A stretch of DNA of 64,000 nucleotides from Takakia lepidozioides (lineage: Eukaryota; Plantae; Bryophyta), in NCBI GenBank assembly GCA_030704615.1, contig CM060731.1, positions 60,016,001 through 60,080,000 on the forward strand, written 5' to 3'. The notes under the pieces were generated by a model. It had not been told where the DNA came from. It saw nothing but the letters and a program-made list of their open reading frames with translations, and ran no database searches. Within the stretch, counting starts at the first letter, position 1, and each line of letters begins with the position of its first letter. The position numbers were made by a program, and so were the translations under genes. This document shows, piece by piece, positions 2,940 to 49,690 of the stretch.

Positions 2940-4335
2940 GTCATGCACGCTATCTACATGACGAATTGCATGGGATGAACCAGCTTGAGCTCCCATTGCT
3001 AGAATGCACAAAAAGGCCGATGCGTGCCATCCTGGCAACCATCTCCTCATCTGTCTCACCATGCCACCGAGCTCCAGTATCATCATGCTCGCTCGTGCAT
3101 GGATTACGACTCAACCCATCTGTATCCCGATTGACTATACCGGCTCGATACACCACTTGGAAGTCGTACTCTTGAAGCATAAGCGCCCACCGTGCAAGCT
3201 TCATTGTAAGCTTGTCCGACTCCATCAACCACTTCAATGGTTGGTGATCCATGACAAGGGTGAAGAGATTGCCATAGAGGTAGCATCTGAAATGTGCCAC
3301 TGCCCATACCGCAACTAGACACTCCCCTTCATAGGAACTATACTTCGCCTCGGTACCATTGTTCGAGCGGCTAGCATATGCCACTACGAACTTTCTTCCC
3401 TCATCATCCACCTGTGTGAGCACTACTCCAATCCCCAACATACTCCAATCCGTATGTAGCTGGAAAGGCCGCCCCCGAATAGGCCGCCTCAGAATAGGTG
3501 CAGAAGTCAATCGAGCCTTGAGTTCCTCAAAGGCTTCCTCCTGCTCCTCCTCCCACTGCCACTCCTGACCCACCTTGGTCAATTTGGTAAGAGCCTTTGC
3601 AATGCTACTAAATCCCTTGACAAACCGTCGATAGTAGTTTGCCAATTCCATGAAGGCACGAACTCTGCTCACATCCATAGGGCGTGGAATGCATGCAATG
3701 GCCTCCACTTTGTCTGTTGAACACCCAATCCTCCAGGGTATATCATGTGGCCTAGATATTCAATCTGATTGTGGAAGAACTTGCACTTTCCGGGGTGCGG
3801 TTTCAATCCGTGCGCTCTCAAGCGCTCAAACACCACCTGAAGGTGTCTCTCATGCTCCTCAACCGTAGCACTAAAGACGATGATGTCATCAATGTAGCAC
3901 CGGGCGAAGTCTAGCCCGCGGAGAATCCTATCCATGACCCTCTGAAACTCTGCAGGAGCATTCTTCAACCCAAACGGCAATAACCGCCATTGGTACAAAC
4001 AATCCTTCCCATGTTGGTCAATCCCCCAGAATGTCGTCTTTTGCTTGTCAGCCTTTTTGATTGGCAACTGGTGGTAACCGGATCGCAAGTCCAATGTGCT
4101 AAACACCTTTGCATGCCCAATGGCATCCAAGATCTCCTCTGGAGGTGGCATGGCATATCTATCGGACTTAGTCTGACGGTTCACATGATGATATCCCCAC
4201 ACATCCTTCTTTCTGTCCAATTGCCATAGATATCCTTCTTAGCTGGCATCACCGTTGCCGAGGCATACTCCCCGCCTGACAACTCCACCAATCCAGCTTC
4301 GAACAACTCCATAGTCCGTGACTGGATCAATGACC
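2940..4335 (-). mobile_element. Ty3/gypsy LTR retrotransposon pol fragment (reverse transcriptase + RNase H), frameshifted, no integrase seen
   Basis: RT motifs YASATVMPAKKD..GNWTERRMCG, FSTLDLRSGYHQ, LPFGLKNAPAEFQ, YIDDII, YLGH. RNase H motifs FQLHTDWS, VVAYASR, YSSYEGE, DHQPLKWL, LARWALMLQEYDF, DGLSR. Frameshifts near 4200 and 3710. Confidence 0.95.
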
Positions 4336-4339
4336 TCTC

Positions 4340-4402
4340 CATGACACCCATGTCAAGCAATTTAGATCCATTGCTTGACCCAACACTTGGCGACGGAATA
4401 CC
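4340..4402 (-). pseudogene. Second, diverged copy of the DNA methyltransferase C-terminus (motif X) abutting the RT start
   Basis: Minus strand reads SLSEVFRRQVLGQAMDLNCLTWV; it is an imperfect inverted copy of 5640-5707. Confidence 0.8.
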
Positions 4403-4769
4403 TCTGACAGACTGCTCCCAGTGCGGCTTATTAGAAATGTAGCGGTGGACAATAGGAACATGATGCCCACATTGGCTGCATTTTCAGGGGTGGTGGCTTG
4501 GGATGGTGAGCTCTTGGAGGGCAATAGCCATGCAGATGATGATGGCCACCACCTGATGAGGACAAACAATTGGCATACAAGGCTGATTTGCTTCCTCATG
4601 TACCTGTTCATATTCCACTGTGGGGTACAGTTGGGAATTTGCATCGAGTAGCAGACGAGTATGTGCACCAAGCATGGCAGGAGGCCTATCCATTGGTGAT
4701 TCAGTGACATCACCCGGACCTCCTCAGTTAGCTCATTTGGACACAATGCCCATTACCTGGCAACCACCT

Positions 4770-5740
4770 GACTCAGGGATTTGCTTATTAGACATTTTGG
4801 AGGCATGAGCACTGGGCTTGTTGCAAGTAGGGATTAAAGTATTCAAGTACTTGTATGTGGAGAAGGATGAGATGGTTTGGCGTATTTCTATGCGCCACAT
4901 CGCCTTGCTCACACACCAGTATCCTGAGTTGTTGCATCTCTCAGCAATTCAAGGGTATCAAAAGGCCTTGCCAGTAGACATTACCTTGCTGGGGGGGCGG
5001 ATGATTTGGACGGCATGGTGCCATTGACTTGGTGATAGCTGGATGGCCTTGCCAATGACACTCTCCCGCAGGTCATGGGAATGGCTTGCATGATGCACGA
5101 TCGCATTTGTTTTGGGAGATGTTGAGAGTGTTGCGTGACTTGCAGACGAGGCAAGTGCAACCTCTAGCCTATATCTTGGAGAATGTTCCTCTCATGGGGG
5201 ACTCTCGGGCCCGGGTTATGGCCAGTGTGCATCAGGTGCGGTCTTGGATTGGATCGGCGGTGCTATTGGATGCAGCAGTGGTGGGATCACGAGAGCATCG
5301 ACCTCGATTGTGGTGGACCAATCATGCACCACCAGAGCTGCTCAAAAGAGCATACGATTCCATTCAACGGCCACCCAATCTCACAGTTGAGGGCATTTTG
5401 GACCAAGGGAGGCAACCACAGAGGGTGCGATATGATGACCGTTCACCTCTAGCAGTGGTAAATTGAGTGGGGCAGCCACGTGCAGCCTTGCTTACGCTCA
5501 TGAGCTTTCCCTCGTATCATGCTTTCGAGACAATGGTCCTGGGTTGATTTCGGACAGTGTACTATAGCAATTGGTGGAGCCCAATGCGGATGTGCGAGAG
5601 TGGGCAATGGGATTTGCCACGGGCACTACAGTTGTGTCAGCTCTGTCAGAGGCATCATGACGCCAGGTGTTGGGTCAGGCAATGGATCTCAATTGCTTGA
5701 CATGGGTCTTTGGCTTGTGCATGGCTGAGCAACGGAGATT
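4770..5740 (+). pseudogene. Retrotransposon-borne C5-cytosine DNA methyltransferase, decayed
   Basis: Ordered C5-MTase motifs: I DI(F)GGMSTGL (~4791, 1-nt frameshift), II YLYVEKD, III DI, IV IDLVIAGWPCQ (GWPCQ 5041-5055, then TGA), VI YILENV (5179-5187), VIII HRPRLWWTN, IX REWAMGF (~5595), X RQVLGQAM (~5661). Confidence 0.9.
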
Positions 5741-5904
5741 GCAAGCATTGGTGGCTACTTCTGCACTTCCATTGGATATTGTACCATCTCTCTTGATCTA
5801 TTGACTTCAGATAGTGGGACTTGGACGATTGATGACCAAACGATGATCTTATTGGGATGGATACTTGTCAGCTATCTGGTGTTAGAGGGACCTAATCACC
5901 GGCT

Positions 5905-6000
5905 AGGGGGGGGATTGTGGTATAGCTTTCTAGGATTGTGTGCTTAGATTGTGTGGTGGACAGCGATGTATGTTGTGGCACGATGCTTAGGTGCACGACA
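5905..6000 (+). mobile_element. Polypurine tract and probable start of a 3' LTR
   Basis: AGGGGGGGGA (5905-5914), then T, then TGTGG at 5916: canonical PPT-TG junction about 170 bp after the MTase. The LTR end is not identifiable and no partner LTR is seen. Confidence 0.6.
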
Positions 6001-6769: not shown

Positions 6770-9700
6770 GTATGCTATCTACTTGGGTCCTGTAAAACGG
6801 TATGAAACCTTAGGAATTCTAGAGTATATCAACGTCGCATGTGTTGGGCATACACCCTATTGCGCGTTCTCCGCAAGGCTCTGGGTCGGGTTTTCCATGC
6901 TTCGACAAAATCCTTTTTCTTTTTCAGAAACATATTATTATTGTCCTCAACAGGTCGGAAAGGTTTTGCTGCACGAGGATGTAGCATCCCAGCAGCACTT
7001 TGGCCAGGATATCAATAAGCTGCCCTCTACAGATTCGAAGGCACGACAACACATGTGTCTCGAGGTACTTGTCATCACCCACAATACGAAGTATATCTGA
7101 CCATTCTTCGGCCATAGTCAGTGGGACGTAGACAAGCTCCTCGGGGGGTGCGAAGTCACAATCATCCACAGGTCTGTCCATCGCACCAACCTCCCCGGGT
7201 GCAGTCGTGTCATCCAACATCAGATTATGCAATCCTCCATGTATGGTTCCGAGCACCGTGCCACATGCACGCACTATGAGTCCATCCTGCAAGTCGGGAT
7301 AAAGCAACTTCAGCACTTTCATTTGGTGTTTGCACAAATTGCCTTTCATTGCCCATGGGCAAGTGCAAGAAGCCCAATCTAATCCAGGGTTGTAAACAAT
7401 GTAGGTTGTGTCTGGGTGATTGCTGCTTAGCACATACGTTGGTTGTCCTTCCACCAACGGCAGAGTCACATTGCTCGCTGGAATGTCCCTGGCCGCTAGC
7501 ACAAAGCTAGATATGTACTTTTCCTATTTGTCATTCCATATGAACCCATGCGTACCAGTAGTGTATGAGCACACGGCCCGTGAGTTTCCATATTAGCCAA
7601 TCGACTCTTTGACCAATCATTTGTCTTTCCCCATCCTTAGTCTAGCCTTCAAGTTTCCATGGTATCCCTCAATGCTAGCATTTGTGTCTTGACTGGCATG
7701 TGGAATATGACGAGCAGCAGTACACCACATTGCTATTTTAGGAGACCATTCCTTGTCGATGTACTTTAAAAATTCCCGGGCATTCCGATATTTCTTTCTC
7801 ATGTCCCTGATTGTTTTGGCGACCCAGAGAAGCGTTTTTTTGGGATCGCTTGATCCACCTCTACAATATAGAGGTCTCCCATATCCTTCAACACGTTTGC
7901 TGCAGTGACGGGATCTTTGGTCTTCTGGCATGATTGCTTTACCCATGCCTTGTGGACATGCCAAAGGCACAGGAAAATGAGGACTCCTTTGAAAGCAACC
8001 TTGCACATAACACATCCACATCAGGCACTTTAGAGGGAACCCCCCATTGTCGGTGGACACCAACCGAGTGTGCTGGAGACCTCCAATAGACTCCACACCA
8101 ACCCCTAAACGGACTTGGTGGTAAGAAACTGCCTACGGGTCTGGCGGGCCGACTTCCCCTCCCAAGTCTGCCAACAGACCCATGAAGCGTGCCAGCAGAC
8201 TCGCCCCCACGAGTCTTCTAGCGGACTCGGCCAGTTGAGTGTGCCAGCGGAGTAGCCCAAAGCAGACTCCACACCAACCCTTAAATGGACTTGGTGGTAA
8301 GACACTGCCTGCGGGTCTGGCGGGCCGACTTCCCCTCCCAAGTCTGCCAGCAGACCCATGAAGCATGCCAGCGGACTTGGCCCCGCGAGTCTTCTGGCGG
8401 ACTCGGCCCGTTGAGTGTGCCAGCGGACTCGCCCACGCGAGTCTGCCAGCGGACTTGGTCGGGCGAGTCAGACTCGCCCACACGAGTGTGCAAGCGGACT
8501 CTCCGAGTGGAGTCTGCCAGTGGACTCGCGCATGCGAGTCTGCCAGGGGAGTAGCCCAAAGCAGACTATGACGACACTTGCATGACAGCGGACTTCGACA
8601 GTGGGTGTCTGTTGGGGTATGAGAGACTCACCTAATAGCGTTTATTTCAGTGTCCGCATCATCGACAATGAAGGCATTGGGTCGTCAGGTTGGCATATCT
8701 GTGTGGAGTCAGTCACGCAAGGCTGTCATCCACGGCACCATGTCTGTTGTCCTATTCCTGGCGGATATGATGTATGCAACTGGTATACCGTTCAGCCACT
8801 CGTCAAAAACCATCAAGTGTATAATGGGAACTGTTCAGATGCACTATGTCACTATGTCAATTGGTTCCAATATGCAACAACGTACGAACAACCGATGTGA
8901 AGAAATGGTAAGAGGGATGAATCATACCTTGTGTGATTTGTCCCGAAGGTTGCGTCGCATGCAACGATATGCACATGTCCCAATTCAAGCATTTTGCTTC
9001 TACCACTCAGTTTGAATGCCAATAGTGAATGTCAAATCTCCATCGTAATGCGCGAAGGTTGGCGCCAATGTTTCTTCTCGATAGAAGAAGACTGATGCGG
9101 GGTTCAGGGCTTTCCACATGCGGACGTTGTCGGCATCGTTGGCATGCTTTTTGAACGTCTGTCACGCCCATTTCTCAGCCAGGTTGCGGACATTTTGCTC
9201 GAGGAGGAAATCATCATGTGTCCATGCATCTCCCAAACATGTGTTGTTCATGACGTGCTCCTTGTGTTCTATCATGATTTGTGCGACCATGAGGCCTCGG
9301 CACAAACACTCAACGACCCAGGCCCCGGGGAAGTCACTTCCAAAAATTTCCAACCGACGTGCAAAATAATATATGGTGCAATTTATTCAGAAAATATAAA
9401 TTTAGAAAATAATAAAAAGTACATTATATTGTGATCAGGGAATTTATATTAATATAGGGTCTAAAATAATGATTTATTTAAAAAAAATTAAAATTACTAT
9501 AAGGTTGAGATAATACGTATGAAAAATTCCAAAAATATATATATGTTCTTAGGGGAAAGATATAGATATTTGTATGTAGCTTACTAATAAAATGGTGGCT
9601 AGGTAGGATTCAAAAAATGAGAAGGAAGGCAGGGAGCAGGTGGGAGATATCGCGACAGCCTATTGATCTCCTAAATAGACCAACCACACCAGTTATGGTG

Positions 9701-15810: not shown

Positions 15811-18129
15811 CCAGATTCCCATATCAAACGAACCCTGGAGAACAAAGACTGACAGCTTGGCACTCCTGCAAAATGGCATTGAAGTTCTTCCAGCAAACAC
15901 CCCAACCCTACCTATTGCAGTACTTCCAATTCTGAATTGCATTTGCTTGTCTCTATACTCTAAGATGACATGATCAAAGCTGGAATGGTGCCATACCTAG
16001 TTGATAGCAGGTTATGCATTGTCAGCATGGATGTGGTAGGACGATGTCACAAAACTACCTTTGTAGGTTGCTGGGCCTGCAGCTATATGGCGATACATAG
16101 GGGGTGTATTGATCCAACACTGTGCGATAGATCCAACACTGTGCGGATTTTGTTGGTCACCCTGTGGGTCAGTCAGATCCACTGTGGTTGTAGTCTGATT
16201 GATAGCACATATTGTACTCTCCCTGCCCATTGAACGCTTCACTGGTTTCACCATCTATATATTGAATGACACAATGATCAAAAAATTAGAATAACACAAA
16301 TGACACACAATGTGAAGCAGCATTAACAATAAAAATCCACCCACGCGCACAAGCATTGAAACTTTTGCTCTCACCTTTCTTTGATTATGCTTTGTTGTTG
16401 CATCGGGAGGCAAAGTCGTTGGAACTCTGGCAGCAGGAAGCCCTGGTTCGGATGCCTTTGCAGATTGTTGTGATCCACTACCCATGGCTGCGCTCTTGAA
16501 CAAGTAGTTGGGCTGCCCATATCTGTATGGGTGCCCTGACACATACTCAGGGATGTGAGCAGCCTTGGATACACCCTCTAACCAAGGCAGTACTTCTTTC
16601 ATAAGCCTCTTGCAGTTTGGCTAATCCCTCGACTTCCATGGATACGGGAAGATGCAATTATTTGTTAGGACTTAGCCTGTTTGACAGGGTGATCCTGCTT
16701 CCAAGACGTCGGGAGCTTAAGGGATGCCAAACTCACCCTAAACAACCATATTGGCTGTTTTGGACATGCTGACATGCACTCCGTAAGCACCCCACTTGAA
16801 TGGATTCTAGAGACTTTGCAATAGAGACTGAGAGATAGATGTACTCGTGAGACCAACTTAGTACCCACTGTAGTCGGTGTAGAAATGAAGTGGTACTTCA
16901 GCTTTAACGTCCGCAGAAAGCTGAAAGAGCTCATGGGGCAAGAGAAAAGAACAAGAAAGTGAGATGGGCCCTCCACGAGTAGCCCAAAAGCAACTATTGT
17001 TCAAGGGTTTGTCTAAGAGCCATGTTGAGATGACAAGGTGAGTTCCATACACATCATAAGGGAATTTACCTTGTATATTAAGCTGCCTAGCATTTCTGAT
17101 CCTCGTAATGGAAGACCTCCGTGACAGATTAGGCATCACAAAATAGACAAGTGAATCTCCCACAGATCTCATAGTAGAAAGGGCAGTGAAAAAAGAAAGG
17201 CTCATCACTTTCAATTTCCCTGTTGTTCCAGCGCAAGCAGGCATAGGTTGTCCTAACGTTGCAGTTGTCCCACCTGCCAATCTCTTTCCGCAGACTCTGG
17301 GAGCCCACCAAGGTTGGGATGGGCCCAAAACTGCCATAGGGGGTCACGGACAGGTTATGACAATCCAACTACAAGGAATTGATTTATGGGCTGCATTACC
17401 AGTATACTAGAAAGCATGAGGTTGATTTCAGCACTGCTCTGGTGTTTGAACTCGTCGCACATGTGGCTGTAGTGGCCCTGCCAGTAAAACACCAGGCAGA
17501 AATGGCGAAACAACTCTCTCTCTATATCTCTCTGTCACTATCTCTGGACAAATAGCTATGGGCAAACATCTTAAATGAGTACATTCTAAGACCATTATAA
17601 ACTGTCTTCGAAAAAGTTAAACCAAAAGGAGATGATCTTACATCCACAGGAAGAGAGGGGGAGAGAAAATATGTAAAGAAAAAGAAGCAACTGATTACGT
17701 CTCAAGGAGGCCCAGAGGAAGTAGAACCAACAAAAACACACAACTTGTTCAAAGTTGCTTTGATACGGGAGTGCATCATGCCGACACGCTGTTAACCACT
17801 TCAGGAGCTCGTAGCATCCATATGAAAGAAATTTATTATGTACTCAAAAGAGTAATATGCTTTGGCAGTGCACAGATCTAGCAATGACCTTTCTCCTGGG
17901 TTGCATGTTGATTTCAGTATGGAACTATCACAGCTCCTACACAAGACCATCTCCTCATTCTGAGCTTGATCTTTACTTCAGTTACGTCAAGTACAAAAGT
18001 GACATCAGGAGGCAAGTAGAGAGTGACAGTCAAGAGAATAAAACTGGGTCACATAATGGATCACACATGATACAAAATGATAGACCTAAGGAGAAAGAAA
18101 ATGTATGAGATATTCAAGATGACCACTGG

Positions 18130-18292
18130 GGCTGGTTCCAGGGAAGAGGAGTCGTCCTGGCACAGAGTTTGGCAGATGTGAAACGGGCCATTGAGGGGTA
18201 TCCTTGTTCGAATTTGCTGGCACAAAAGTACCTGACAAAGTCAATGCTGATAAATGGTTACAAGTTTGACCTGCGCATTTATGTACTTATTC
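18130..18292 (+). pseudogene. Captured fragment of a tubulin-tyrosine-ligase-like (TTLL) gene
   Basis: QGRGVVL...LAQKYLTKSMLINGYKFDLRIYVLI matches the TTL-family signature QGxG..QxYIxxPxLIxGxKFDLRxYVL. Confidence 0.85.
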
Positions 18293-18947
18293 CATGGAGA
18301 CAGAACTTTGGTGCAAATTGCAAACCTGCTGATGGGTTGGGGTGTTTGCAGGGTGCTTTGCGCGCTTTGTCTTTGCTGGGGATTCTTTTGTCGTTTCCAT
18401 CTCTGACTCTGAGCTGGTCTCATTCAAGTCTTCATGTGCGGCATAATCTTGGTCTCGCTGCAGTTCTTGCTCTCGTGCCTCCTCTGCGTCTGACTCCGCT
18501 TGAACTTGCACTCCCTCCTCTTGCTCAACCCCTTTCTCCTGTTGTGACATTGCAGAGTGCAGGAGTTGAACTCTGTGACTTCGGCTAGGATGACCTGTGT
18601 GTTTGAGGATTTCCTCAACGAGGCGTTTAGGGCGACTCAAGCTCTCTTCGAAGCTGCAAAGAAGAAGAAAGACAAAGTCAGTAGCTGCAAAACCCTAACA
18701 TATCCTCTCTGTAGGTTTGGAGCTTTTAATGCGGTCTCATGGCTGGGGCTAGGTAGGGGATATGAAAAAAACGGAAGTTCGTACCTCTTTGCAATGTCGT
18801 AGATCTTGAGCCACGCGAAGAATACCTTGTTCTCCGCTTGACGCTTTGCTCGTTCTACCTCCCTCGCTGTACGCTTGCGCCCTGGTGTAACTTCTGGACA
18901 CTCTATTTGGGTCTCCATTTTCTGACAAGTCTCGCTCACTCACCAAG

Positions 18948-19709: not shown

Positions 19710-20370
19710 TGAAGTTGTGGCATGAATACTTTTCTGACCCTAGTCAATGGTGGCCCAATTGTGGCAAAAAGGTGAATGCCTGTTGGATTACAAAGAGTAG
19801 CAGATGCAATTGAGCATAGGAACTAGAGTGAGAAGTTGAGTTGGGTGTTTCCTGGAACAAATGTAGGCTGTTATTATCAGCTGCTACCAGCAAGGCAAGG
19901 ATGTATGCATAATTTGTGCAGAGGCATGGATAGCTGAAGGAGCAGAGATAGAGTGTGAGTCCAGATTCATCCAAGAGAGCCACATTTCTAGCACAACATT
20001 GCCTATGATTCCTTGTGGAAGGATAGCTACAAGAAACCTGCATGGGTAGATGGTCAACTGGAAGCCGCAGCAGCAGCGGCACAATTGGTAAAATCAGGCG
20101 ATGAGGGCACCTTCTTCAACACATTTCACCCTGTTTTTCCCTCTTATCAAAATCGGCCCTAAATTTCCATGTTGAATTCTGCGAGTTAGCTGGTTGAGTG
20201 AATCTTGATAGATTGGAGTGACTTTGACATGATACTGCCAATGTGACAACAGGAAAGTATCCAAAAACAGGTACAAGAGATGAGGAGAAGGTGTGGAATG
20301 AATACTTTTCTGATCCCAGTCAATGGTGGGACAACCGAGGCAAAAAGGTGAATGCCTGTCAGATTACCAG
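19710..20370 (+). pseudogene. Two captured fragments of an organellar ssDNA-binding (OSB-family) PDF domain
   Basis: KLWHEYFSDPSQWWPNCGKKVN (~19710-19780) and EEKVWNEYFSDPSQWWDNRGKKVN (~20280-20355) match the W..FF.NP..WWDNR..K.N motif. Confidence 0.75.
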
Positions 20371-20384
20371 ATGTCATTCTGAAC

Positions 20385-21270
20385 ACAGCAGGGGCGTGGG
20401 ATGGAGGCTTTGGAGACCTATGAGCAAATGATGGGGGAAGGGTGAAGCCCGACCACATAACGTTTGTATGTGTTTGCAGAGCATGAAGGTCAAGCCTGGC
20501 AGCTCTGGAAAAGGGAAGATCAGGTCCATGGTTTCATTGTCAAAGCTGGAATTGTACCTGATGTGATTATGGACAATGCCCTCATGGACATGTATGCCAA
20601 ATGTGGGAGCATCAAGGGCAAGCCTGGCAGCTCTGGGAAAGGGAAGATCAGGTCCATGGTTTCATTGTCAAAGCTGGAATTGTACCTGATGTGATTCTGG
20701 ACAATGCCCTCATGGACATGTATGCCAAATGTGGGAGCATCAAGGGCAAGCCTGGGAAAGGGAAGATCAGGTCCATGGTTTCATTGTCAAAGCTGGAATT
20801 GTACCCGATGTGATTCTAGACAATGGCCTCGTGGGCATGTATGCCAAATTTGGGAGCATCAAGGGCAAGCCTGGCAGCTCTAGAAAAGGGAAGATCAGGT
20901 CCATGGTTTCATTGTCAAAGCTGGAATTGTACCTGATGTGATTCTGGACAATGCCCTCCTGGACATGTATGCCAAATGTGGGAGCATCAAGGGCAAGCCT
21001 AGCAGCTCTGGAAAAGGGAAGATCAGGTCCATGGTTTCTTTGTCAAAGCTGGAATTGTACCCGATGTGATTCTGGACAATGGCCTCATGGACATGTATGC
21101 CAAATGTGGGAGCATCAAGGGCAAGCCTGGCAGCTCTGGAAAAATGGAAGAGGTCTATGGCTTCATTGTCAAAGCTGGAATTGTACCTGATGTGATTCTG
21201 GACAATGCCCTCGTGGACATGTTTGCCAAATGTGGGAGCATCAAGGATGCGAAGGCAGTTTTCCAACACT
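20385..21270 (+). repeat. Captured PLS-PPR fragment amplified as six ~120-128-bp tandem units
   Basis: Units start near 20491, 20619, 20747, 20867, 20994 and 21122, each encoding [40 protein letters not shown]. Preceded by a [23 protein letters not shown] motif. Confidence 0.92.
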
Positions 21271-28225: not shown

Positions 28226-28332
28226 CAGGCTGGTTGGCAGGCAGGTTGGAAGTCTGGTGCACATGCAATTGTACCGCCGAAATTTTATTTCATGGGGAGA
28301 ATGATACTGTACCATTTCTTACATTTCCTACT

Positions 28333-31300
28333 CTATTTTAAAACTGGTATACGATCTGCGACTCTTCGGATTGTGGAGTATATGTGTGCTGCAGGTGTTG
28401 GGGCACCAACCCTCTTCCCTGTTTTGCGTAAGACCCTGGGTCGCGTTTTCCATGCCTCAACGAAATCCCGTTTTCTTTTCAGCGACATATTGTTGTTGTC
28501 ATTTACAGGACGAAAGCTCTTTGCTGCCGCAGGGTGCAGCATTCTTGCAGCACTATTGGCGAGAATATCAACAAGCTGCCCCCTACAGATACGAAGAGAA
28601 GACAACACATGTTTTTGCAGGTATTTGTCGTCCCCAACAATGCGAAGTATGTCTGCAAATTCTTCATCCATGGAGGATGGTACGAGGACAGGCTCCGCAT
28701 CATAAGGGAAGTCATCTGTGGAAGGGCCCTCTATTGCATTTCCCAAACCCTCTTCGTTGCTGACACTTGCATGAACCTTAAACACATTATGCAATCCTCC
28801 ATGAATGGTTCCCAACGCCGTGCCACAAGCGCGCACTATGAGTCCATCCTGCAAGTGTGGATGAAGCAACTTCAGGACTCGGACTTGATGCTTGCACAAA
28901 TTGCCCTTCATTGCCCATGGGCAAGTGCAAGAAGTCCATTCGCATCTGGGGTTGTAAACAATGTAAATTGTGTTCGGGTGATTGGTGCTTAGAACATAGG
29001 CTGGTTGCCCAGGATGGAACGGAAGAGTGACATTGCAAGCTGGGATATCGCGTGCCGCAAGCCAGAACTTGACATGTACTTCTCCTGTTTGTCATTCCTT
29101 ATGAATCCGTGCATTTTCAGGTGAATTGCATATCAGTAGTGTGCTAGCACACGGCCTGTGAGTTCCCATATGAGCCAATCCACTCTACGCCAAGTCATTT
29201 TGCCTTTCCCCATCCTCAGTCTTGCCTTCAAGTTTCCATGGTATGCCTCAATGCTAGCATTGGTGTCTTGACTGGCATACGGAACATGGCGAGCTGCTGT
29301 ACACCACATTGCTATTTTAGGACGCCATTCCTTATCGATGTAGTCCAAAAATTCATGCCCATTTGGATATTTCTTTCTCATGCGTCGGAGCGTTGTTGCT
29401 ACCCATGCAAGACCTTCTTTGGGATTGATTGGTCCACCTCTACAGTACATGAGGTCTCCCATATCTCTTAGCAAGTTTGCGGCAGTGATAGGATCTTTGG
29501 TTTTCGCGCATGATTGCTTCACCCAAGCCCGCCGGACATGCCAAAGGCACAGGAAAATTAGCACTCCTCGAGAAACAGCCCTGCAAAGTACACATGCCCA
29601 CATGAGAGACTTCAAAGAGGACTTGGCCGGTGGATTTGGGCACTAACCCAGTAGACTGTCTAGTTGACTGATCTGCCCGTCTGTTCCAAATGGATTCAAG
29701 CAGCAGACTCGCCCACTCTGACCTGCCATGAGTGTTGCCCTCACGACACCGCCAACAGACCTGACCATGCTGACCTCGCAGCGGACTTACGTAAGTGAGT
29801 CTTGCAACGGACTTGGCCAGAGGGCATCCCGACCGGACTGGGTTGCCAGCAGACTTCCGAACAGTCCCCTTCGGCGGACTCACCTGCTAGCGGACCAGAG
29901 TGAGAACGTAGCAGACTGACGCACGTGAGTCTTGCAGCGGACTGCTTGCGAACGGTCCCCTCCGGTGGACCTGCCTGCCAGCGGACTTGCTGGACCAGAT
30001 TGAGGTCACAACAGACTGGCGCACGTGAGTCTTGCAGTGGACTGCTTGCGAACAGTCCCATCCGGCGGACTCGCATGCGAGCGGATTTGCTCGACCAGAC
30101 TGAGGTCACAGCAGACTGGCGCACGTGAGTCTTGCAGCGGACTGCTTGCGAACAGTCCCCTCTGGCGGACCTGCCTGCCAGCGGACTTGCCCTTAGGAGA
30201 CCGGCAGTAGATTTACCCAGACGTTGCTGGCAGCACACCCGAGCAGACTGACCTTGCAGCGTACTTGCGCAAGTGAGTCTTCCAGCAGACTTTGCTAGAG
30301 GACATTATCAGCGGACTGGTTTGCCAGCAGATTTGCAGAAATGAATGGGCCGGACTTGCAGCCAGGACTGCGTTGTAAGGCAGAGGACTTGCCGAAGAGA
30401 CAGACAATGGACGTAGACGACGGACTTGCACGCGAGTGTACAGGAGGGTACGTGAAACTTACGTAATGGCGTTTATTTCGGCGTCGGCATCGTCCACAAT
30501 GAAGGCATTGGGTCGCCAGTCCGGCATTTCTGCGAGGAGAGAGTCCCGCAAGGCTGCCATCCACGGCACCAGGTCTGTTGTTCGTTCACGCGCGCATATG
30601 ATGTACGCAACTGGTATACCGTTAAGCCACTCGTCGAAGACCATCAACGTGTACAATGGGAACTGTTCAAATGCAGAATGTCAGATGTTGTCAATGTGCG
30701 TACATCCACTACTTCTGCAAGTGGATAAATTGTGAAAGGGATGAAGAGTACATTGTGGTGATTTGTCCCGAAGGTTGCATCGCATGCAACGATACGGGCA
30801 TGGCCTAATTGAAGCATTCGCTTCTTCTGCCACTCAGTTTGTATGCCGATTGTGAATGTTAAGTCGCCATCGTAGTGCTTGAATGTTGGCGCCAATTTTT
30901 CCTCTTGATAGAAGAAGACCGATTTCGGGTTCTGGTCTTTCCATATGCGGACACTCTCCGCATCGTTGGCATGTTTTTTGAACGCCTCCAAGTCAAATTT
31001 GTCCAATCTGTTCATGTTCTCCACCAGGAACAGTTCCAAGAGTGTACCTAGAAAATCCTTGAAAAACCCAATGAGCATGAAAAGTTTTGGAAGCGTTCTC
31101 CGCAACATCATGTTTTCATGATCATATGATGTTTCAAGTATTTTTGTGGCACATTTGCGGAACTGTTACAGGTGGAGAACATAAATAGATTGGGAAAATA
31201 AGAACTGGACAAGCACCTCATTACCAAACAAGACACATTACAAAAGACCCCATCATGTCGAATTTCCGAATGCTGAACCATCCCGCTCGTTCATTGTAGC

Positions 31301-32503
31301 ACCCTCCCTTATGAAGCTATTTTTGTAACAATACGACTAGTACTGGGGAAACATTCTCGCCGAGCTGGATAAGCCAATTCCAGAAGCTCCCGACCGTATT
31401 CAGCTTCTTGAGGGATTCTGGCCGAAAACAAATTGGTCCAAGAATCATCACAGAGATGGAATCCATCCACATATATTGCCAGATGTGGAAGAAGAGGATG
31501 AAATCCTAGAACCTTACTGTGGCCCGAGGTGTGAGCGACCAAGAATATCCCTGTTTGCCATGTCCGTTTCTCGGCCAGGTTGCGCACATCCTGCTCTAGC
31601 AAAAAATCGTCCCGTGTCCATGAATCCCCCAACCCGGTGTTATTCATGACGTGCTCTTTATGTTCCATCATGATTTGGGCGACTGACAGGCCTCGACACA
31701 GACACTCTATGACCCATGCTTTCAATTCCTCGCTAATGTGTGGTGCGTAGGCGTGGCGAGTGTTCCTGAACTCAACGGACTTCCCATGACATGCGTTCCC
31801 TTTCGCGTCTGTATGCTCCATATTGTTGTAGTACGTGAGGACACAAATGTCGGGGGCGAGATAGCATTGCTGGACCTTGAAACAGCACTGGCAACCACGC
31901 TTGTAAGACTCTCCATATTCTGACTTCTTTCTCCTTGGCCTTTATGAGGGTGAGATGTTCCAGCACCCAGAAGAGGTCCTCCACGTTTCAGTTTGGGATC
32001 CTCCACTATCGCATTGTTGGTGTGCTTGTCATCTGGACCATAACAGCATTGATACCTGGACATAAAAATCACAATGGATATCCATCGACTTCTGGAAGCA
32101 TGAAATCACAGAACGTGGGTACGAAAAATGGCAACAGACATGCAATCAGACTACAAAATGACGATGAGGATGGAGCACACATGATACTGTTCAGAGAACT
32201 GCTGGCTCTTGGCTCTTTTAGCATCCCGGGTTGCACTTTAGTATGGACATTCACCCAAAACTGAGTGGGGTAGTCCACCAAACTCTCCTCTCCAAGGAGA
32301 AAGTCATCAACTCTATCCCACGGTATGCAGGCCTTCAGAACATTATGTCTGGCACCCATATAACCATATTGCGTGTCTCTCTTCCATTGGAGGTCCTTCC
32401 TGTTGAAGGGTCCTGGTTTGGGTGTTTGCAAACTTTGTCGAAGAGGCCGTATAATCCAGCATTCCGTTTTTAGTATATCATCACCTTATGCTTCCACGTC
32501 CAT
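28333..32503 (-). pseudogene. MULE-type SWIM zinc-finger transposase (copy B), lightly disrupted
   Basis: IPWDRVDDFLLGE..YPTQFW, RYQCCYGPDD, EHTDAKGNACHG, ACDATFGTNH, YTLMVFDEWLNGIPVAYII, AFIVDDADAEINAI, LCLWHVRRAW, TNASIEAYHGNLK, SWIM CTCPWAMKGNLCKH. GT-AG introns; TGA at ~29133; insertion at ~30988-31556. Confidence 0.92.
30988..31556. mobile_element. Insertion in transposase B: ~220-bp fold-back plus a foreign coding fragment
   Basis: Absent at the homologous site of copy A (~9160). 30988-31037 is an imperfect inverted repeat of 31159-31208. The + strand then reads YWGNILAELDKPIPEAPDRIQLLEGFWPKTNW. Confidence 0.65.
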
Positions 32504-39600: not shown

Positions 39601-42600
39601 TCAATCTGCTGTGTGTGGTTGGCCCAGTAACTAGACCCCAGAAGGGCCTGGGCTTTTGGCTCAGCCTCGAAACTTTAAAAGTTGGTAAATTTAGGTACAG
39701 GCACAATTCCCTTGATAGATTTGAGGAGAGCGTCTCTCTGGTGAGAGTACCCTGGACAGTGTATCAGGAAATGAATATTGTCTTCAGGTTGCCCACACAA
39801 CGGGCAATTGCACTCTCCCTTTCCTCTCTGCTTCTGTTTACTGTTCAAAGGTAGGCTTCCTGCCCTAGTTCAAATTTCAGTCTGGTGCCGAGAGTGGGTA
39901 GACCCTTGAGGTCATCCATGATATCCTACCCCATGTCACAGACTGGAAACAGGTTCAGGGAAGTTTTCTGCCTAACTTCATTTTCATCGGACAATTTTCT
40001 GGTAACAGACATGGCTTTGGACACTACAGACTCTAAGTCAGATTTATCCAGCAAGGTCAAGACTTGCGGGTCCAGATTCAGATGCGGGTGATTGAGAGAG
40101 AGAGAGAGAAGTAAGGAAGAAACTCTAAAATGCCCATTGGAAGCTCAAAGAGCTTATGAGACAAAGCAAAGTATGATACAAACTATTATCTGGGAAGAGT
40201 AGTATTTCATAGTATCTATATTAAAGAAAAAGGTAACAGAGCTCCATATTTTCTGGAACAACTGATTGTGCAACAACTTGACTGCGATTGTATGGTGCAG
40301 TTGACAAGGCAGGCGGTGCAGAACATCCATCTTGATGGGGGTAGTCTGCTTGGTGTCTCCCGCGGGGGTGCCAAAACCACCGACATTGTGGACAGCTTGC
40401 AGGTCATTGCGCATTACATTGAGATCTTCTAATTCTAGACTGGTTTGGTGAACCAAGTCACAAGAAATTTGCAGATATCGTTGAGGCAGTTCCACAGTCG
40501 CAGCTAATGTTTGTGTCACTCCTGGCCCCAACATGCTTGCCATACTCAGGTCTTAAACCTGAGTCTCAGGCCAAGTTGTGTTCCGTTTTTGTGATCTGTG
40601 GACCCTAGGCTTTGGTTGATCTTACAAAGTGTCAAAAAATGAGTTATGAAGCATAGTACACTGACTTGTAAAAGTTCCGTGGATGACTGCAGAAAAAACA
40701 TATCAACATGCTGTTTGTGCTAGGGGGCAATGGAACTCATGCAGGTGCCAATGCCATTCACAATGAGGTGATTGTACTTTCTGATGCCTACCACTATATA
40801 GCTTGTCTCCCTTTGTCAACTAGGTTTGTTGTACTCATCTGTGTGGTGCTACGGGAGGGAAGAAAGTATAAATTGTATCATCTCCAACAGAAGAAGAAAG
40901 ATGAACTATGATCTGGAGAGGCCCAGCCAACCATGGGATACAGTACAAGAGCCAAATCAAACAAATGAAAGGGTATGAAATGCTGGAGGGACCATCCGTT
41001 CAAGGGTCGTTGAATTCTGTTCACCAGCCCGAGGACTTGGAGCACACCGTTAATTTGTATTTATGTGTTTTTCTCAATCAAAAATCCTAACATTGCAGGA
41101 AGCCATCTTGCCTCATGCACGTAGGTGCATGTGTTGCAGGGACGTTTAATACTGCAGAGTCTGGAAGGCAAGCAGCAACCTTCTAACAATACTTTCTGGT
41201 GACATGCAGTGTCGAAGGCGCAATCTGAGAATTTGTGTCGTGGGGGTTCCAAAGACTATTGATAACGACATTTTACTAATGGACAGGACTTTTGGCTTTG
41301 ACACAGCTGTGGAAGAAGCACAAAAGGCCATCAATGCAGCCTCCATTGAGGTGCGGGTGGAAGATTGTGCCGTATTGATTAGTTGGCAGCAATGTCAGAG
41401 AACTCAGCTCATAGAAACAATTGATTTACTTGCAAGGTATCAATTGGAATTTCCCGTTTCGAATAGAGCAGTTCCCTTCGTTATAGCTAGCTATAAAATA
41501 TCTAACCACAAATATACGACTAAGTTTATTTATAAATGTAAAGCAATTTCGCCTAACATGTTTCAATGATGCAGGCAAATAGCGCATACAATGGAGTTGG
41601 AATTGTGAAGCTTATGGGCCGTCAAAGTGGTTTTATTTCCATGCATGCATCTTTGGCCAGTGGTCAGGTGGATGTTTGCTTAATTCCTGAGGTACTTTTC
41701 TCTTTCACATCTATTCTAAATACTGTCATGGATGTGGAATGAGTATACAATCCCATCTACCATGGGATTCCATTATTCAATACAATCTGAAGATTGCTGG
41801 ATTGATTTGCGTGCAAATGGCTGGATCCCAAAGCCTCTAACGATGCTAAACATTTCAATGGTGCATATAAAAGACTGTCTATGTGTGTAAAGGTTTCATA
41901 GCCTTTTATGGATCAGGGATATTTTCCTGAGCACATTTTAGATTATTTCTAAGACATTCACCACTACTCAAAATGCCATCAAATAGCGTATTCATTAACA
42001 ACCTACAGTGCATTGTGGGAATGAAACTCTCATTCAGGTGCCATTCAGCTTGGAAGGGCCTAGTGGGTTGTTACAACATATCCAGTATCTCATTGAGAAT
42101 AAAGGTCGTGCTGTCATCTGTGTGGCTGAAGGTGCCGGCCAGGTTAAAAACTTCTCACTTCTCTCTTTTCCTTTTTTGAGAAATGTAGGAGTATTTTTTA
42201 TACAATCTTTAGATTCTGTTCTGTCCCATAGGTTCTCTGGACCCCTCGTGGACACACTAAAACTCTTATCCTCTCTAATATGCACATCAAGTGAAATTCA
42301 GTTGGATTTTCCCTTGCAGATGTATTGTGATAGTTGGACTTGCTCACACACTTTAGTATCAATCCACTGTATGCGTGAGTGGCTGGGCTTCTTGAATTTG
42401 CCATGTGCACATGGGCATCTGTGTATTGACATGTATCATGTGAGCAGGAGATGCTACTGAAGTCAGGAGCCTCTGATGCTTCAGGAAACCCCATCTTGGG
42501 TGACATTGGTGTTCACCTCACTAAACTGGTGGGTTGCATGCTTTTCTCTTCCTCTCGTTTGAAAGCTACATCCCTGTCTGCACTACTGTCACCGTCAATA

Positions 42601-44739: not shown

Positions 44740-47700
44740 CTGTAGAAATTCTGGAAAGAGTTGGGCAACTTTAAGACTTAGGGCTTCTTTATACTGCGAC
44801 CCACCAGTGAGAACCCAACAAGCCTCTTAGGATTCCAAAGCCAGTGTAGAATCCAAGCCAGACACTCTTCAAACCAAGACAGCTCAAAATGCCATGCCAT
44901 GATTTTCCTTACTCCAAACACCGTTCATTCACCATGTCAGACATAAATCAACAGACCAGTTGTGGGGGAAATTCCCCACCCTCACCCCAAAGCTGGATTC
45001 TCGATAAATTCTGACTAGGTGACAAGTCAGATTGGGTTATCATTCGAGAACCCTAGTGTGAAGGCTCCAAAACCCAATTTATAACTTCCGGTGAAACACC
45101 AATCGTGATTGCAACTTGGAATTTGTCATTTGGGCTGCAGTGTGAAGTGGCCCTTATTCAGATTGTATTCTTGTTACATCACTAACTATTTTGGTAGGGA
45201 GAACATATTTTAACCAAGTATCGCCCTGAAGTCCAGAAACATGTACCTTAGCATGCTGTTGCTGAGGGCAGAGACTGGATTCCTAAAGGGGAGGGTTTGG
45301 GAAAGATGAGATGCCTTCAAATAGGCTCACACTATTGACTCATTATCATTGTGAGAAATTCAGAAGGGACATATATAGACAGTCTAATTTGCAAACTGAA
45401 CAGAGTAAGTCCTCCATAAGGGAGATATTGCTGACTTGCCACACTTTAAGGCACAATGATCACCCATGCCGAAAACTGATTCAAGGGCTTGGCGTCAATT
45501 GCGCTAAGAAATCAGCTAGTGAGTCTAGATAACCGGCCACCTGATAGAGAAAAGGAAGACATTCCAAGTCATTTTCTTATCCAAGCATATATCAACTATG
45601 ATAGATGAGACCTTTAGTTTTTGGATGGATAATGGACAAGGCCGCTTTTAAGGACATTGAGCTTCCTATCAGGAGAACCTGTCATTTGCTCAAAGCCTGG
45701 ACTGGACTGCAAGAAGACATTGAGGATATGAACTGTTCAAGCATTACACAAAGTGAAAGAAAGAAAGAAACTGTATGATGTCCACTGAAGCTTACAGAAC
45801 AAGCCTGCATAACAGGCCAACCAAATGAGAACATGGGGCTGAAAGTACCTGAAGCAGGATGCCCTTGCCCGTCAATCCCTCCACAACAATGCCAGCTGTC
45901 AGTCCTAGCATTGCCCATCCTCCGTTAATTGCTTCAATCTCACGGCGTCTCTGCATCCCACAACTTCATGATGAAAAACCAAAGTATAGACACCAGTATC
46001 TGCCTCTCTCTCAAGGGGACCAAATACTTTTGAACTTTCTGCCTCTTTAAGGCATCATAGATGTTTCCTGAAGTGGTCATTTCTTTGTTCTACGCTGTCC
46101 CATAGACCTTTGTGGCCCTCTGGACATTATAAAGTTTCTTTCCTTCTTTCTCCTGATTCCAGTCTCTTTCATTATCCCCTATCGCCAAGTTGCCCCCATG
46201 AAGTGGGACTGCACTATGCGCTCTGCAGATGTTGGCACTATAATAACAACTCAGAAGTTGTTGGAATCACAGATTTCAAAGTGCCGAGAGTACCTGGAAT
46301 TTTGCACGGGCTTCCAGCAACCTCCACTCTTCAGCAGCCAAGCGCTTGGCCTCCAAGGGGTCCACCATGTTAACCACCTTGGGCTCTCTTCTTGATCCTC
46401 TCAATGTGCCATTTACTTTTCCCTGGATTCGAAATAAACCAGACCTTCTTTTACGAACAGTGTAGTATTGATTGCAAGCTGTTAGAACTCAGTGGAGTCC
46501 GCTTTCTCTCATCTTGCATTGAGGTTTTAATTCTACAGAAATGCAAGTTCTCTCAAGGCGTAATGATCTGGGACTTACTGTACCATTCAATGTGATGATA
46601 ACCATGCTGCATACCTTTCCCGATATCATGCATGCATGCATGCCTGAGACGAGGAAAAGCTCAAGTCTCAATGCAGTAACTACTCTGATATGGAAAAAAC
46701 CAATTAATCAAGTTCCTCTACTGCAAGGGTGCATACGGTATTCAAACTTTGTCCACATCAACCTATTAAATGTAGCTCCATCCTAGCACGTCTTTCATAT
46801 TGGAGACACTAACAAGCAAGACAGACAGGAGAGAGAAGTGGGTGTATGGGCATATCAGAATTACAAGAGCACACCAAAAGAACTGGAGATTTGTTCCATC
46901 CATGCGCCTTTGGTACGCATGGGGAAGAGAGGCAAAGGCCATGTGAGGAAAGTACATACATCAACTCCCCCAACTGCACGAACAACTGGGACCCTTGTTC
47001 TCTTCCATGGTATGCTCTGCCCCAATCCAGACACCCTGAATTCTCCATTGTTGCTACTGCAGCCTGCTTCCGTTCACATCAACAGCATGGCAAGAGCATG
47101 ACAAGAACTTCCTATAGGATATGTGACAGTTTATGGGAGAGGAGATATGTCAATCATGTCTTCATTTACCGGGAAAGATGATAACCCCGTCCTCACCTCA
47201 CAGCCAACAATCTCCACGACTTAGTTTCTTTCCACTTGCTCTGGTCTCCAAGTAATACAACCGCTTTGCAGGTATCACATTCATGTCCTCTGACATTTCA
47301 TTTGAATATGTCAACCAAGTTTTCTTGCTTAGAGAAATGTAGGAAAAGACCGTCACGCCATCACCACAAAACATCCTGAGTCATGCTACGATTTATGGCA
47401 AGAGACGTGGTTTAGATACCCAGCATTATGATCACCATTCTCCCATCAATGTGTACTTATCCCAAGATGTAAATTTACTTCCTATATAATACAATTGCTT
47501 ATCGAAGAAGACATGACGAATCTCTTCACTTCCACAATGCACCATCTCCACTATCTTATTTACTATACAGTCAGTCCACAGCATTCCAGGTCAGAAACTT
47601 TTGTAACCAACCTGCGACACCGAATAAGCTTATGATTCATTGTCTCTACTTCGCTATGCGAAAACAATCTAAAATCTAGGCCTGGCAAGTGTCGTGAATT

Positions 47701-49690
47701 GAAGTTCTACTTGAGAATCGGAAAGAGAAGACCTACAAAAAGAGATGAAAAATTCCCATAAAGGATATTAAATAGAGCGGCAGTGACATAAGACAGTGAG
47801 ATTAAAACATTAAGAAAACGAAACTGAATTCGGGAGTTCCATCTTCGAGCCACTCACTGGAGAGCGACGTCGTAGGGGTGAAAAGAGATATCCCCAAGCT
47901 TCTTGTTGATGGCCGAGACTGAGGAGAGAGATGCGACGAAGCTCCAACAAAGCCAGATGTCTGAGGAGCTTGCAGCAGCATCATCGCCTTCTTCGTCTCT
48001 CTCCCTGCGATTCTTCTCCCCCCTCCTGCCTTGGCCTCCGCCCACAAAACGAAGACGATAACCGGTGACCACCGGTCGACCCTCCGTGCTGGCCACCGGT
48101 GATGGCCGGTGCAAACTCACGGAGATATAGCACCACGTGGCGGAAGATTCAGCCACGCGCAAATATCCACTCTGGAAGTTACTGCTCCTATTTACCGGGA
48201 TGCATTCGTAGAATTGGTAAAAGGTACAGTTTTCACTTTTGACTCGTTATGCCTGAAGCCGAGTCACAGCATTTGGAAGACATGGATCCGTGATGCTGTC
48301 TTCCTGCGAGAGGCATATATTAGTTCAGAGCTTATTGAAAAAGCCCTCAGGTATTGGTGTAGGAAAGATTGGCTGGCCTGGTGGAAGGAATGAAGCATGC
48401 CAAGAAATGCAACCAAGGAAGAGTGTGAAGGTGGGGATGCAGATGAAGATGATGAAGATATCGGTAGTGACATGGACCTGAAGAGGGAACGTGCAGAAGG
48501 GCTCTCCGTGGATTGCAGGCAAGATCACAGAGGACCAGTTGAGGAATCTGGCTCAAAGAGTAGTAGGTCGCCAGCAGATCTTAAAGCAGAGGTCACAAGG
48601 AGCAGCAAGTGGGAACCATGGTAGGGTTTTAGTTCTTGAACAGAATGAGAAGGAAAATGCCAGGGAAGACAGGGATTATGAGGGTGACAGCAAGTTTGAC
48701 ACGCCAAGTCTCTAACATTGATGGGTAGAAAAGAGGCAAAGTCCTCAATGAGTAGAGCACATTTGGATGTGTCAGTTTGGCTGGAGGTTTTGATTACAGA
48801 GTGGGGTCCCAAAGGGGGTTGCACTGACAATTCCCTGCACAGCCAGGGGACCTGAGGCTGGAGTAGGATACTCCAGAAACCTTCAGCACCAGCCTGCCCC
48901 AACTGCCCCCCCCCCTGGGGTTTCACCAAAGGGTTCTCAAATTCAAAACTAGAAAGTTGAAAATTACTGGGAATGCAAGGCAAGATCAAGACTTCACGTG
49001 ATAATCAACTCCCAATTTGCCTCAGGTGCAGGGATACTGACAGATAGAGTAGTTGGGGCATTTGGGACCAGAAGACTTGTCCATAACCATGGGTCTAAGA
49101 GCTTAATGGGTTTTGCTAGCTGGTGAGAGAAGCCTTCCTCACGGGGACCCTAGTTGTCAATTGTGCTGTCCTGGTAATCCAAACCAGAGTGACATGGGCA
49201 CTTTCAAATATGGCAGGAAAAAGGGCCTTGTAAATGAGACATTCTCTCTAACAGCGCAACATGAAGGTGATAATATCCCTCCATGATGTGATACTATTCC
49301 ATGGGTTATCTGAGTAAAGATTAATCACCAAACAACATAGTGTCTCAGTTCCATTGGTGTTGGGCTAATCCCAGCTTGTGGTGAAGTTGACTGGCACATG
49401 AATCCACTATGGACTTGAAAACATTTATTTGATAAACATCTGCTTGATCATCGAGGAGGAAGGTGGAAAAATGCAGAGGTGCAGCTGTAAATGGTGTACA
49501 TTAACTGTTTCACATCAGCAGGATCATATTTTTTAGGCAACTACTCAATGTCAAGGAAGGCAGGCTTGAATTGGATTTCCATGGAGGAGACAAAAAGATG
49601 TCTTCGGAAGAGGCGCGACTCCAATCTCGGTGCTAGTAAAACTGCTGGGATCTAATGTCAAGTCTCCCTTGGAGATATGCAAATGCCTGT
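44740..49690 (+). repeat. Local segmental duplication, copy 1
   Basis: 44760-46443 matches 60555-62204; 47654-48250 matches 62204-62842; 49570-49690 matches 62920-63045. Confidence 0.9.
45481..47984 (-). CDS. SEP5: LHC-like stress-enhanced protein, SEP5/At4g28025-like, 5 exons, about 169 aa
   Basis: Exons 47984-47858, 47681-47612, 46444-46294, 45950-45849, 45540-45481 splice in frame. Transit-peptide-like N-terminus, then VNMVDPLEAKRLAAEE...RRREIEAINGGWAMLGLTAGIVVEGLTGKGILLQVAGYL (ExxNG.WAM LHC motif). Exon 2 and the exon 3 acceptor are less certain. Confidence 0.85.

Follow-up and report, generated by a model that had tools for sequence, protein, structure and literature searches.

A methyltransferase beside gypsy sequences in Takakia

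We analysed a stretch of 64,000 nucleotides (nt) from the bryophyte Takakia lepidozioides, called the window below (contig CM060731.1, positions 60,016,001 to 60,080,000 of the forward strand). Our subject is the element at window positions 2940 to 6000, which the original prediction took for a Ty3/gypsy long terminal repeat (LTR) retrotransposon carrying its own C5-cytosine DNA methyltransferase (DNMT) in a land-plant genome.

A broken, DNMT3-like C5-cytosine methyltransferase lies at 4776-5707 (+ strand). As first described, it is intronless and holds motifs I, II, IV (GWPCQ), VI (ENV), VIII (RxHRPR), IX and X in canonical order. It has neither the N-terminal domains of MET1 and CMT nor the permutation of DRM, which places motifs VI-X before I-V. 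Its open piece 5059-5463 scores 25.1 bits against the PF00145 profile, above the Pfam cut-off of 22, and the best tblastn piece against a Marchantia homologue reaches 231 bits compared to a maximum of 20.8 over 40 shuffles. Identity is 54-75% by piece to Marchantia Mp4g09160 and 59-77% (over the query) to named bryophyte element proteins. The catalytic Pro-Cys, the Glu-Asn-Val and the motif VIII arginines are retained. Frame breaks are found near 4795, 4990-5010 and 5523, and stops at 5056, 5464, 5565 and 5658. The window copy is dead, as had been claimed, and capable of none of the element steps proposed below.

On the same strand, the enzyme is preceded by a protease-methyltransferase linker (4412-4775, +; tblastn match to the Marchantia linker), while the protease and gag themselves are absent. 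It is followed by the first part of a post-methyltransferase tail (5708-5789, +; protein homology to 5747), truncated upstream of the family's conserved stop codon. Then come a 3′ untranslated region (5790-5904, +) that matches the 3′ region of related loci, a polypurine tract (5905-5914, +) aligned with the tract of these loci, and an 85-nt terminal repeat, TG...CA, at the right element end (5916-6000, +). We call this repeat B; it aligns with the 115-nt B of relatives.

Copies in the window's own genome were judged from contigs of sequencing runs under the same species label. In two DNA runs, 49 and 42 contigs depart from the window sequence at exactly 6000, and the parting of dozens of other copies at this letter marks it as the element end. 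A polypurine tract and a TG start about 170 bp after the enzyme had been predicted, and both are present, the TG at 5916 lying ~170 nt beyond the end of protein homology; what starts there is the short repeat B, not a full LTR.

The opposite strand holds a reverse transcriptase (RT; 3469-4347, -; PF00078, E 7e-32) with an absent N-terminus and frame breaks near 4193 and 3707. It is followed by a gypsy RNase H with the start of the RNase H-integrase linker (2940-3468, -; PF17917, E 2.6e-33; found by tblastn with Marchantia probes), truncated at about 2940. At the DNA level this piece matches relatives as far as 3004-3006, and the remainder to 2940 was assigned by eye from protein similarity. 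Between RT and linker lies a 66-nt motif X piece of a methyltransferase from a second related copy (4346-4411, -), which overlaps the RT by 2 nt. The reported neighbourhood of enzyme and gypsy RT/RNase H is real, but the RT and RNase H run from 4347 down to ~2940 head to head with the methyltransferase; the integrase is absent.

A gypsy family with a DNMT3-like enzyme inside the polyprotein

The architecture of the family was read from related metagenome loci. We analysed the best 80 of 128, which are moss-like, group with Sphagnum in the DNMT tree and include near-duplicates. The order on one strand is gag, zinc knuckle, protease, linker, DNMT, tail, RT and RNase H, then integrase and PHD finger. 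Gag or protease lies 5′ of the DNMT in 60 of 61 loci (900-nt flank), and RT lies 3′ in 51 of 57. An integrase core is present in 29 of the 33 loci with a 3.2-kb flank. Both rve and an integrase zinc finger were found. Among solved structures the RT matches Ty3 RT best (E 3.5e-34), and caulimovirus and retroviral RTs follow at a wide distance.

The central claim of the original prediction, a methyltransferase family inside gypsy elements in a land plant, is borne out by nearly all related loci with enough flank and by gene models of liverworts and Sphagnum. The layout once proposed, with the enzyme next to the polypurine tract, is an accident of rearrangement in the window copy; in the family the enzyme sits between protease and RT.

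By profile the DNMT comes closest to DNMT3A, and DNMT3B, DRM2, DNMT2 and bacterial enzymes follow. The predicted model of a close relative (predicted local distance difference test, pLDDT, 91) has DNMT3A/B as its best folds, with TM 0.82-0.85 by target length, and this relative is ~22% identical to the DNMT3A structures. The family enzyme is DNMT3-like by profile and fold, and activity is predicted for it. It shares fold and catalytic motifs with the host DNMT3/DRM enzymes (best solved matches DNMT3A/B, then DRM2) but differs from them in its low identity (~22%), the lack of introns, N-terminal domains and permutation, and its place within a polyprotein. DNMT3-like matches in bryophyte genomes can be transposon cargo.

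Of 61 distinct copies, 59 retain the catalytic Cys, all 61 the motif VI Glu and 58 the motif I Phe; over 50 diverse sequences the catalytic Cys, Glu and Arg are nearly invariant. Between subfamilies, the ratio of nonsynonymous to synonymous substitution rates (dN/dS) is 0.22 for the DNMT (151 pairs, dS > 0.4), equal to that of the RT (0.22, 19 pairs).

The family is abundant under the Takakia label. Summed depth is 44,000-177,000 over the methyltransferase compared to 650-1,370 beyond 6125, with single contigs at 60-120; these sums are not copy numbers and are taken only as "many copies". Much or most of the covering depth shares neither the frame breaks of the window copy nor its stop at 5658. 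Each of two presumed RNA runs gave 3 short partial family contigs, which are uninformative on expression. In two presumed RNA runs from two studies, a 67-nt methyltransferase piece (4907-4973) stands between the same foreign flanks, a fragment lodged elsewhere. At the metagenome locus L005, a PIF1-like helicase (Helitron-like; 4448-5410, -) adjoins the element.

A conserved stop codon follows the enzyme

The DNMT tail is closed by an in-frame stop in 52 of 53 loci. Its context is TAR-[C/T]AA-C, most often TAG CAA CCC (29 loci) or TAA CAA CCC (16 loci). The RT lies in frame beyond this stop in 41 of the 53, and the divergent locus L040 keeps the stop. Proteins show the same boundary: 21 of 22 gag/protease-DNMT proteins from liverworts and others, in or next to the bryophyte clade, end 71-189 residues past the DNMT, and none contains an RT. 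The stop context is similar to that of the leaky stop of tobacco mosaic virus, UAG-CAR-YYA. Judged from this context and its conservation, the stop after the DNMT is likely leaky.

The element ends carry split repeats

All 21 distinct 5′ ends begin with a 337-nt repeat, which we call A (TGTCATG start in 17). The distinct 3′ ends take two forms, tract-B-flank (12) and tract-B-nn-A (4). The arrangement A-coding-B-A-B is complete in L049, L075 and L080, and L005 stops at its contig end. Two identical LTRs, one per end, were not found: the 5′ end is A and the 3′ end is B or B-A-B. The name LTR retrotransposon accordingly holds for the gypsy domains, the tract, the TG...CA termini and the target duplications of relatives, but the end repeats are split rather than paired. 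LTR finders requiring paired LTRs would overlook such elements.

A 4-bp target duplication is exact in 7 of 10 relatives and has at most one mismatch in 9 of 10, compared to 0 of 90 mismatched control pairs. This count is without L005, whose right end is cut, and the window copy gives no readable duplication. The rve integrase core and the 4-bp duplications set the family apart from DIRS elements, which use a tyrosine recombinase and make no target duplication, and no recombinase family was found among the L005 open reading frames scanned. Under the species label of the window, loose ends at 6000 continue with two bases and TGTCATG or TGACATG, an A-like start at 39% agreement, which hints at a B-nn-A joint.

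Following A is an 11-nt site that is complementary, at 10-11 of 11 positions, to a second site ~30 nt past a TATA-like box; this holds in 10 of the 13 loci that could be scored. No primer site of the transfer RNA (tRNA) type is evident after A (no tRNA library search was made). The primer of Tf1 is also 11 nt long. With its self-complementary 11-nt site after the 5′ repeat and no evident tRNA-type site, the family may resemble the self-priming gypsy elements of the Tf1/Tcn1 type, which differ by their chromodomains and paired LTRs (PMC6317226, in the text available). The word "methyltransferase" is absent from the main text of that paper. In several loci, among them L005, L057 and L068, repeat A contains a palindrome: one of its arms is the putative self-primer, and in the other, immediately upstream, the primer-site sequence occurs again.

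With a tract before B and a primer-like site after A, an LTR made by the RT would be B-nn-A. The A/B joints found in the elements vary: L075 and L080 have clean ones, the joint of L049 retains 3 nt of the tract and those of L064/L065 retain 9 nt of the primer site. Junctions of two-LTR circles are likewise variable, either clean or keeping end remnants. From B-nn-A as the LTR, the integrated ends at its internal palindrome CA(C/T)GACA-nn-TGTCATG and the remnants at the A/B joints, we infer that the elements integrate from circles. Deletion between the B repeats may generate many of the single A-coding-B forms.

A proposed life cycle

The best overall explanation, to which we assign a probability of roughly 0.7, is a high-copy Ty3/gypsy family with a DNMT3-like enzyme between protease and RT that likely methylates the element's own new DNA in the particle. 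Three steps are proposed. In the first, which we consider probable, the leaky stop would put the DNMT at Gag level, with many copies packaged and then released by the protease; readthrough would supply RT and integrase. An enzyme made with Gag and packaged in bulk would have complementary DNA (cDNA) as its likeliest substrate. In the second step, towards which we lean slightly, the DNMT would methylate this cDNA; a new copy would arrive pre-methylated and be treated as host chromatin, and the PHD finger of the integrase would choose the landing chromatin. A cDNA target was proposed for DIRS elements by de Mendoza et al., and the available text of their paper leaves open why a retrotransposon keeps a silencing enzyme (PMC5890265).

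In the third step, for which we see even odds, self-primed reverse transcription would build an ordinary LTR, B-nn-A, the cDNA would circularise and the integrase would cut the CA-nn-TG palindrome at the B/A joint. A one-LTR circle would yield A-coding-B and a two-LTR circle A-coding-B-A-B, the sole form with a terminally redundant transcript. If the ends arise in this manner, a DDE integrase would have circles as its normal substrate, a route unlike that of textbook LTR elements. If the whole explanation is true, part of the host methylome could also be the work of the element enzyme where copies are many.

Several results weigh against this explanation. Within the main subfamily the dN/dS of the DNMT (0.58) exceeds that of the RT (0.37), and a stop-free DNMT domain is found in just 4 of 61 copies. 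Transitions are raised at CG, CHG and CTH sites (0.17-0.28 compared to 0.026 for A/T); the copies were methylated, but host silencing suffices to explain this and the element and host enzymes are not separable as its source. The Klebsormidium enzyme produced no methylation in yeast, a result that its authors call inconclusive (PMC5890265, in the text available). The stop is not universal, the DNMT and RT sharing one frame in Closterium and three other relatives. Self-priming pairing failed in 3 of 13 loci and 8 of 21 loci are unscorable, and the arrangement A-B-A-coding-B, predicted by the circle model, is seen in 0 of 21 5′ ends. Finally, the data on ends, stop and integrase come from moss-like metagenome loci rather than from the window's genome.

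It is possible, although we do not favour it, that the ends form without circle cutting. A-coding-B-A-B could be copied as a unit, as proposed for split-repeat DIRS elements, or linear cDNA could be trimmed at internal sites by the integrase, with A-coding-B arising from B-B recombination. The missing A-B-A-coding-B form fits such a route, and the B repeats lie ~340 nt apart, which makes deletion between them easy. Nonetheless, the tract before B and the primer-like site after A define B-nn-A as the LTR made by the RT, the A/B joints vary and keep primer remnants like end-joined circle junctions, and the elements encode a DDE integrase and produce target duplications.

A different job for the enzyme appears somewhat unlikely. 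The DNMT could act after integration or in trans, on other loci or as self-silencing that caps copy number, or it could be a nucleic-acid-binding module whose chemistry is minor. Restraint of copy number is among the options of de Mendoza et al., whose Klebsormidium domain showed no activity in yeast (PMC5890265, in the text available), and the weaker constraint on the DNMT than on the RT within the main subfamily points the same way. The near-invariance of the catalytic Cys, Glu and Arg speaks for the chemistry, and the fusion to Gag ahead of the stop puts the enzyme where cDNA is made. Full-length gene models in Marchantia polymorpha move the question of what a transposon-borne DNMT3 does into a genetic model.

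Range and descent of the family

A homologue search returned 33 proteins, including many Marchantia gene models, Calypogeia and Sphagnum, and a profile search returned 382 clusters at E < 1e-30. Named relatives come from Marchantia, Riccia, Calypogeia, Sphagnum, Closterium, Klebsormidium and Mesostigma. The top 150 include 149 new proteins, of which 101 carry another retroelement domain; 44 of the other 48 are shorter than 600 residues. Neither vascular plants, Physcomitrium nor hornworts appear among the named matches listed, a set that includes 120 of the 303 rows of one search. In IMG/VR, none of 75 pattern matches is a relative, and the top phage and plasmid matches are only 24-31% identical. 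One protein labelled Obscuribacterales bacterium (P0273) nests among the element proteins and is likely eukaryotic DNA in a metagenome bin.

Two domain orders divide the relatives. In Mesostigma, Klebsormidium, Closterium, liverworts and Sphagnum the order is protease-DNMT-RT; in the chlorophytes Cymbomonas, Haematococcus and Chromochloris it is RT-RNase H-DNMT-integrase-PHD. The chlorophyte proteins P0128, P0218, P0250 and P0251, whose DNMT3-like domain follows RNase H and precedes integrase and which end in a PHD finger, have no description in the parts of the literature consulted.

Trees were built with FastTree and smaller IQ-TREE runs, midpoint-rooted, without host DNMT3/DRM and with fragments < 240 residues left out. 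Chlorophytes and streptophytes are split in both the DNMT tree (99/95) and the RT tree (98/88). The window copy falls into one bryophyte clade in both (DNMT 100/99; RT 100/100, with Marchantia and moss methyltransferase elements). The bryophyte DNMT clade is nested among streptophyte-algal elements that include a Klebsormidium protein: GAQ93235.1, a zinc knuckle-protease-DNMT protein of K. nitens, lies inside the same 41-row DNMT clade (99/95).

Because the domain order and both trees part chlorophytes from streptophytes, the most economical explanation is that the family was passed down vertically from a green-plant ancestor, which is also likely as far as such trees can tell. The family was originally said to have "persisted in, or invaded" the land-plant lineage; the nesting of the bryophyte DNMT clade favours persistence. 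Transfer from an alga into land plants, which we regard as unlikely, would agree with the lack of vascular plants, Physcomitrium and hornworts among the matches listed, with the closeness of liverwort and Sphagnum copies (~75% identity) and with a bryophyte clade that is not sister to Closterium. It is opposed by the split of the order and of both trees, although these are midpoint-rooted without host DNMT3, by the streptophyte order shared by Mesostigma, Klebsormidium and Closterium, and by the low identity of the top phage and plasmid enzymes.

Joined to the life cycle, descent from a green-plant ancestor would mean that a single gypsy lineage, already equipped with a DNMT3-type enzyme and an integrase tipped by a PHD finger before the chlorophyte-streptophyte split, is still abundant in bryophytes, with Gag-level DNMT via a leaky stop, pre-methylated cDNA and integration from circles by cutting the LTR palindrome. 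We put forward this full chain tentatively.

Relation to known elements

The kind of element is already known. The relatives' range and the domain orders of streptophytes and chlorophytes identify the family as the land-plant branch of KnitGypsy-Dnmt3 (de Mendoza 2018), and we infer that GAQ93235.1 is a KnitGypsy-Dnmt3 product. According to the text available, KnitGypsy-Dnmt3 of Klebsormidium nitens has an intronless, unpermuted DNMT3-like domain under purifying selection in a gypsy polyprotein, and a DIRS-like repeat layout, A-coding-B-A-B, together with gypsy domains (PMC5890265). In these respects the bryophyte family is alike. It differs in its land-plant host, its abundance and the A-coding-B form of most copies; in addition, the bryophyte DNMT closes the Gag frame before the conserved stop instead of sharing the RT frame. 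As far as the text available goes, no mechanism is given for the split repeats, the species table is without liverwort or Sphagnum and "Marchantia" is absent from the main text.

SymbioDIRS-Dnmt3 of Symbiodinium is similarly a retroelement with a DNMT3-type domain and split repeats, and de novo CG methylation by it was shown in yeast (PMC5890265, in the text available). It belongs to the DIRS class and has a tyrosine recombinase, whereas the bryophyte family has a DDE integrase, a PHD finger and 4-bp duplications. The EpiLTRs of Cymbomonas and Euglena, also gypsy-type, combine a cytosine methyltransferase with a chromatin reader, but in the text available their DNMT is sister to DNMT4 and stands at the pol 3′ end with an adenine methyltransferase and a chromodomain, and they are called distinct from Gypsy-DNMT3 (bioRxiv 10.64898/2026.05.21.726589).

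Later papers cite such elements for "streptophytes" and, in the text available, name no land plant (PMC12344493, bioRxiv 10.64898/2026.05.21.726589, PMC9861306, PMC11982613). Within the full-text literature, with subscription papers largely outside the coverage, nothing was found on the family in land plants, on the DNMT stop or on integration of a gypsy element by way of circles. Supplementary trees in two of the studies cited here may contain bryophyte copies.

The window copy is a patchwork

The joints of the window copy were compared with the other copies. At 4411 these run into the protease C-terminus on the same strand, at 4347 they run into normal upstream RT, and at 5778-5788 their contigs diverge from the window sequence. 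The contigs that continue at 4411 and 4347 and part near 5790 argue that the window copy is a patchwork, with an inverted RT-RNase H from one copy and the linker, methyltransferase, tail and 3′ end from another. A loose contig end before 5790 resembles the sequence after the PHD finger in relatives. The methyltransferase adjoins the polypurine tract in the window because ~3.3 kb (RT, RNase H, integrase and PHD finger; size estimated against L058) is gone at 5789/5790. A splice origin of the 4346-4347 joint was rejected, because the sequence there is incompatible with a GT-AG cut.

The two motif X pieces, 4346-4411 and 5642-5707, are inverted relative to each other and identical at 58 of 66 nt (88%), with 4 of the 8 differences being third-position synonymous. 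That difference of 12% would suit an assembly chimera of two repeat copies in place of a real genomic locus, as would the fact that none of the contigs among the matches listed, which are short, bridges 4347, 4411 or 5790. We consider a chimera quite unlikely: both pieces have decayed equally, the joint at 4346-4347 has a 2-nt overlap and other copies also hold inversions (L003, L064, L065). The family claim is independent of the layout in any case. The internal inversions lie at 1850-2020 in L003, at 8707-9174 / 12772-13239 in L064 and also in L065, and are possibly due to self-integration or template switching.

Taken alone, the opposite strands of methyltransferase and RT in the window would suggest that a host DNMT3 or DRM gene left a solitary processed pseudogene beside gypsy debris. 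This reading is ruled out for practical purposes by the domain order of the related loci and the same-label copies that continue into protease, as well as by the unpermuted motifs and the element's own linker, tail, tract and end repeat around the enzyme.

Other features of the window

Upstream of the element, a unit of 51-54 nt recurs about 28 times at 865-2700, and every copy contains a small GC-rich inverted repeat; the right part of the array has a high summed depth. The array probably represents the end of another transposon, and the retroelement piece adjoins it at ~2935-2940. Two related remnants of SWIM zinc-finger (MULE-like) transposons lie at 6900-9400 and 28300-32500 and are 83-86% identical in pieces.

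A PPR gene at 57100-59514 (-) has a period of 303 nt, as is usual for plant PLS proteins. Together with the phosphofructokinase and tubulin-tyrosine ligase pieces given below and the bryophyte kin of the element, it points to a moss or liverwort as the likely host. At 20351-21258 (within 20350-21260), an array of 128-nt tandem units is 70-78% complementary to the PPR repeats and may be a decayed, amplified PPR piece. Pieces of phosphofructokinase (41150-42460, +) and tubulin-tyrosine ligase (18109-18585, +) were also found, and 45445-48250 and 61238-62842 form a local duplication of 91-95% identity.

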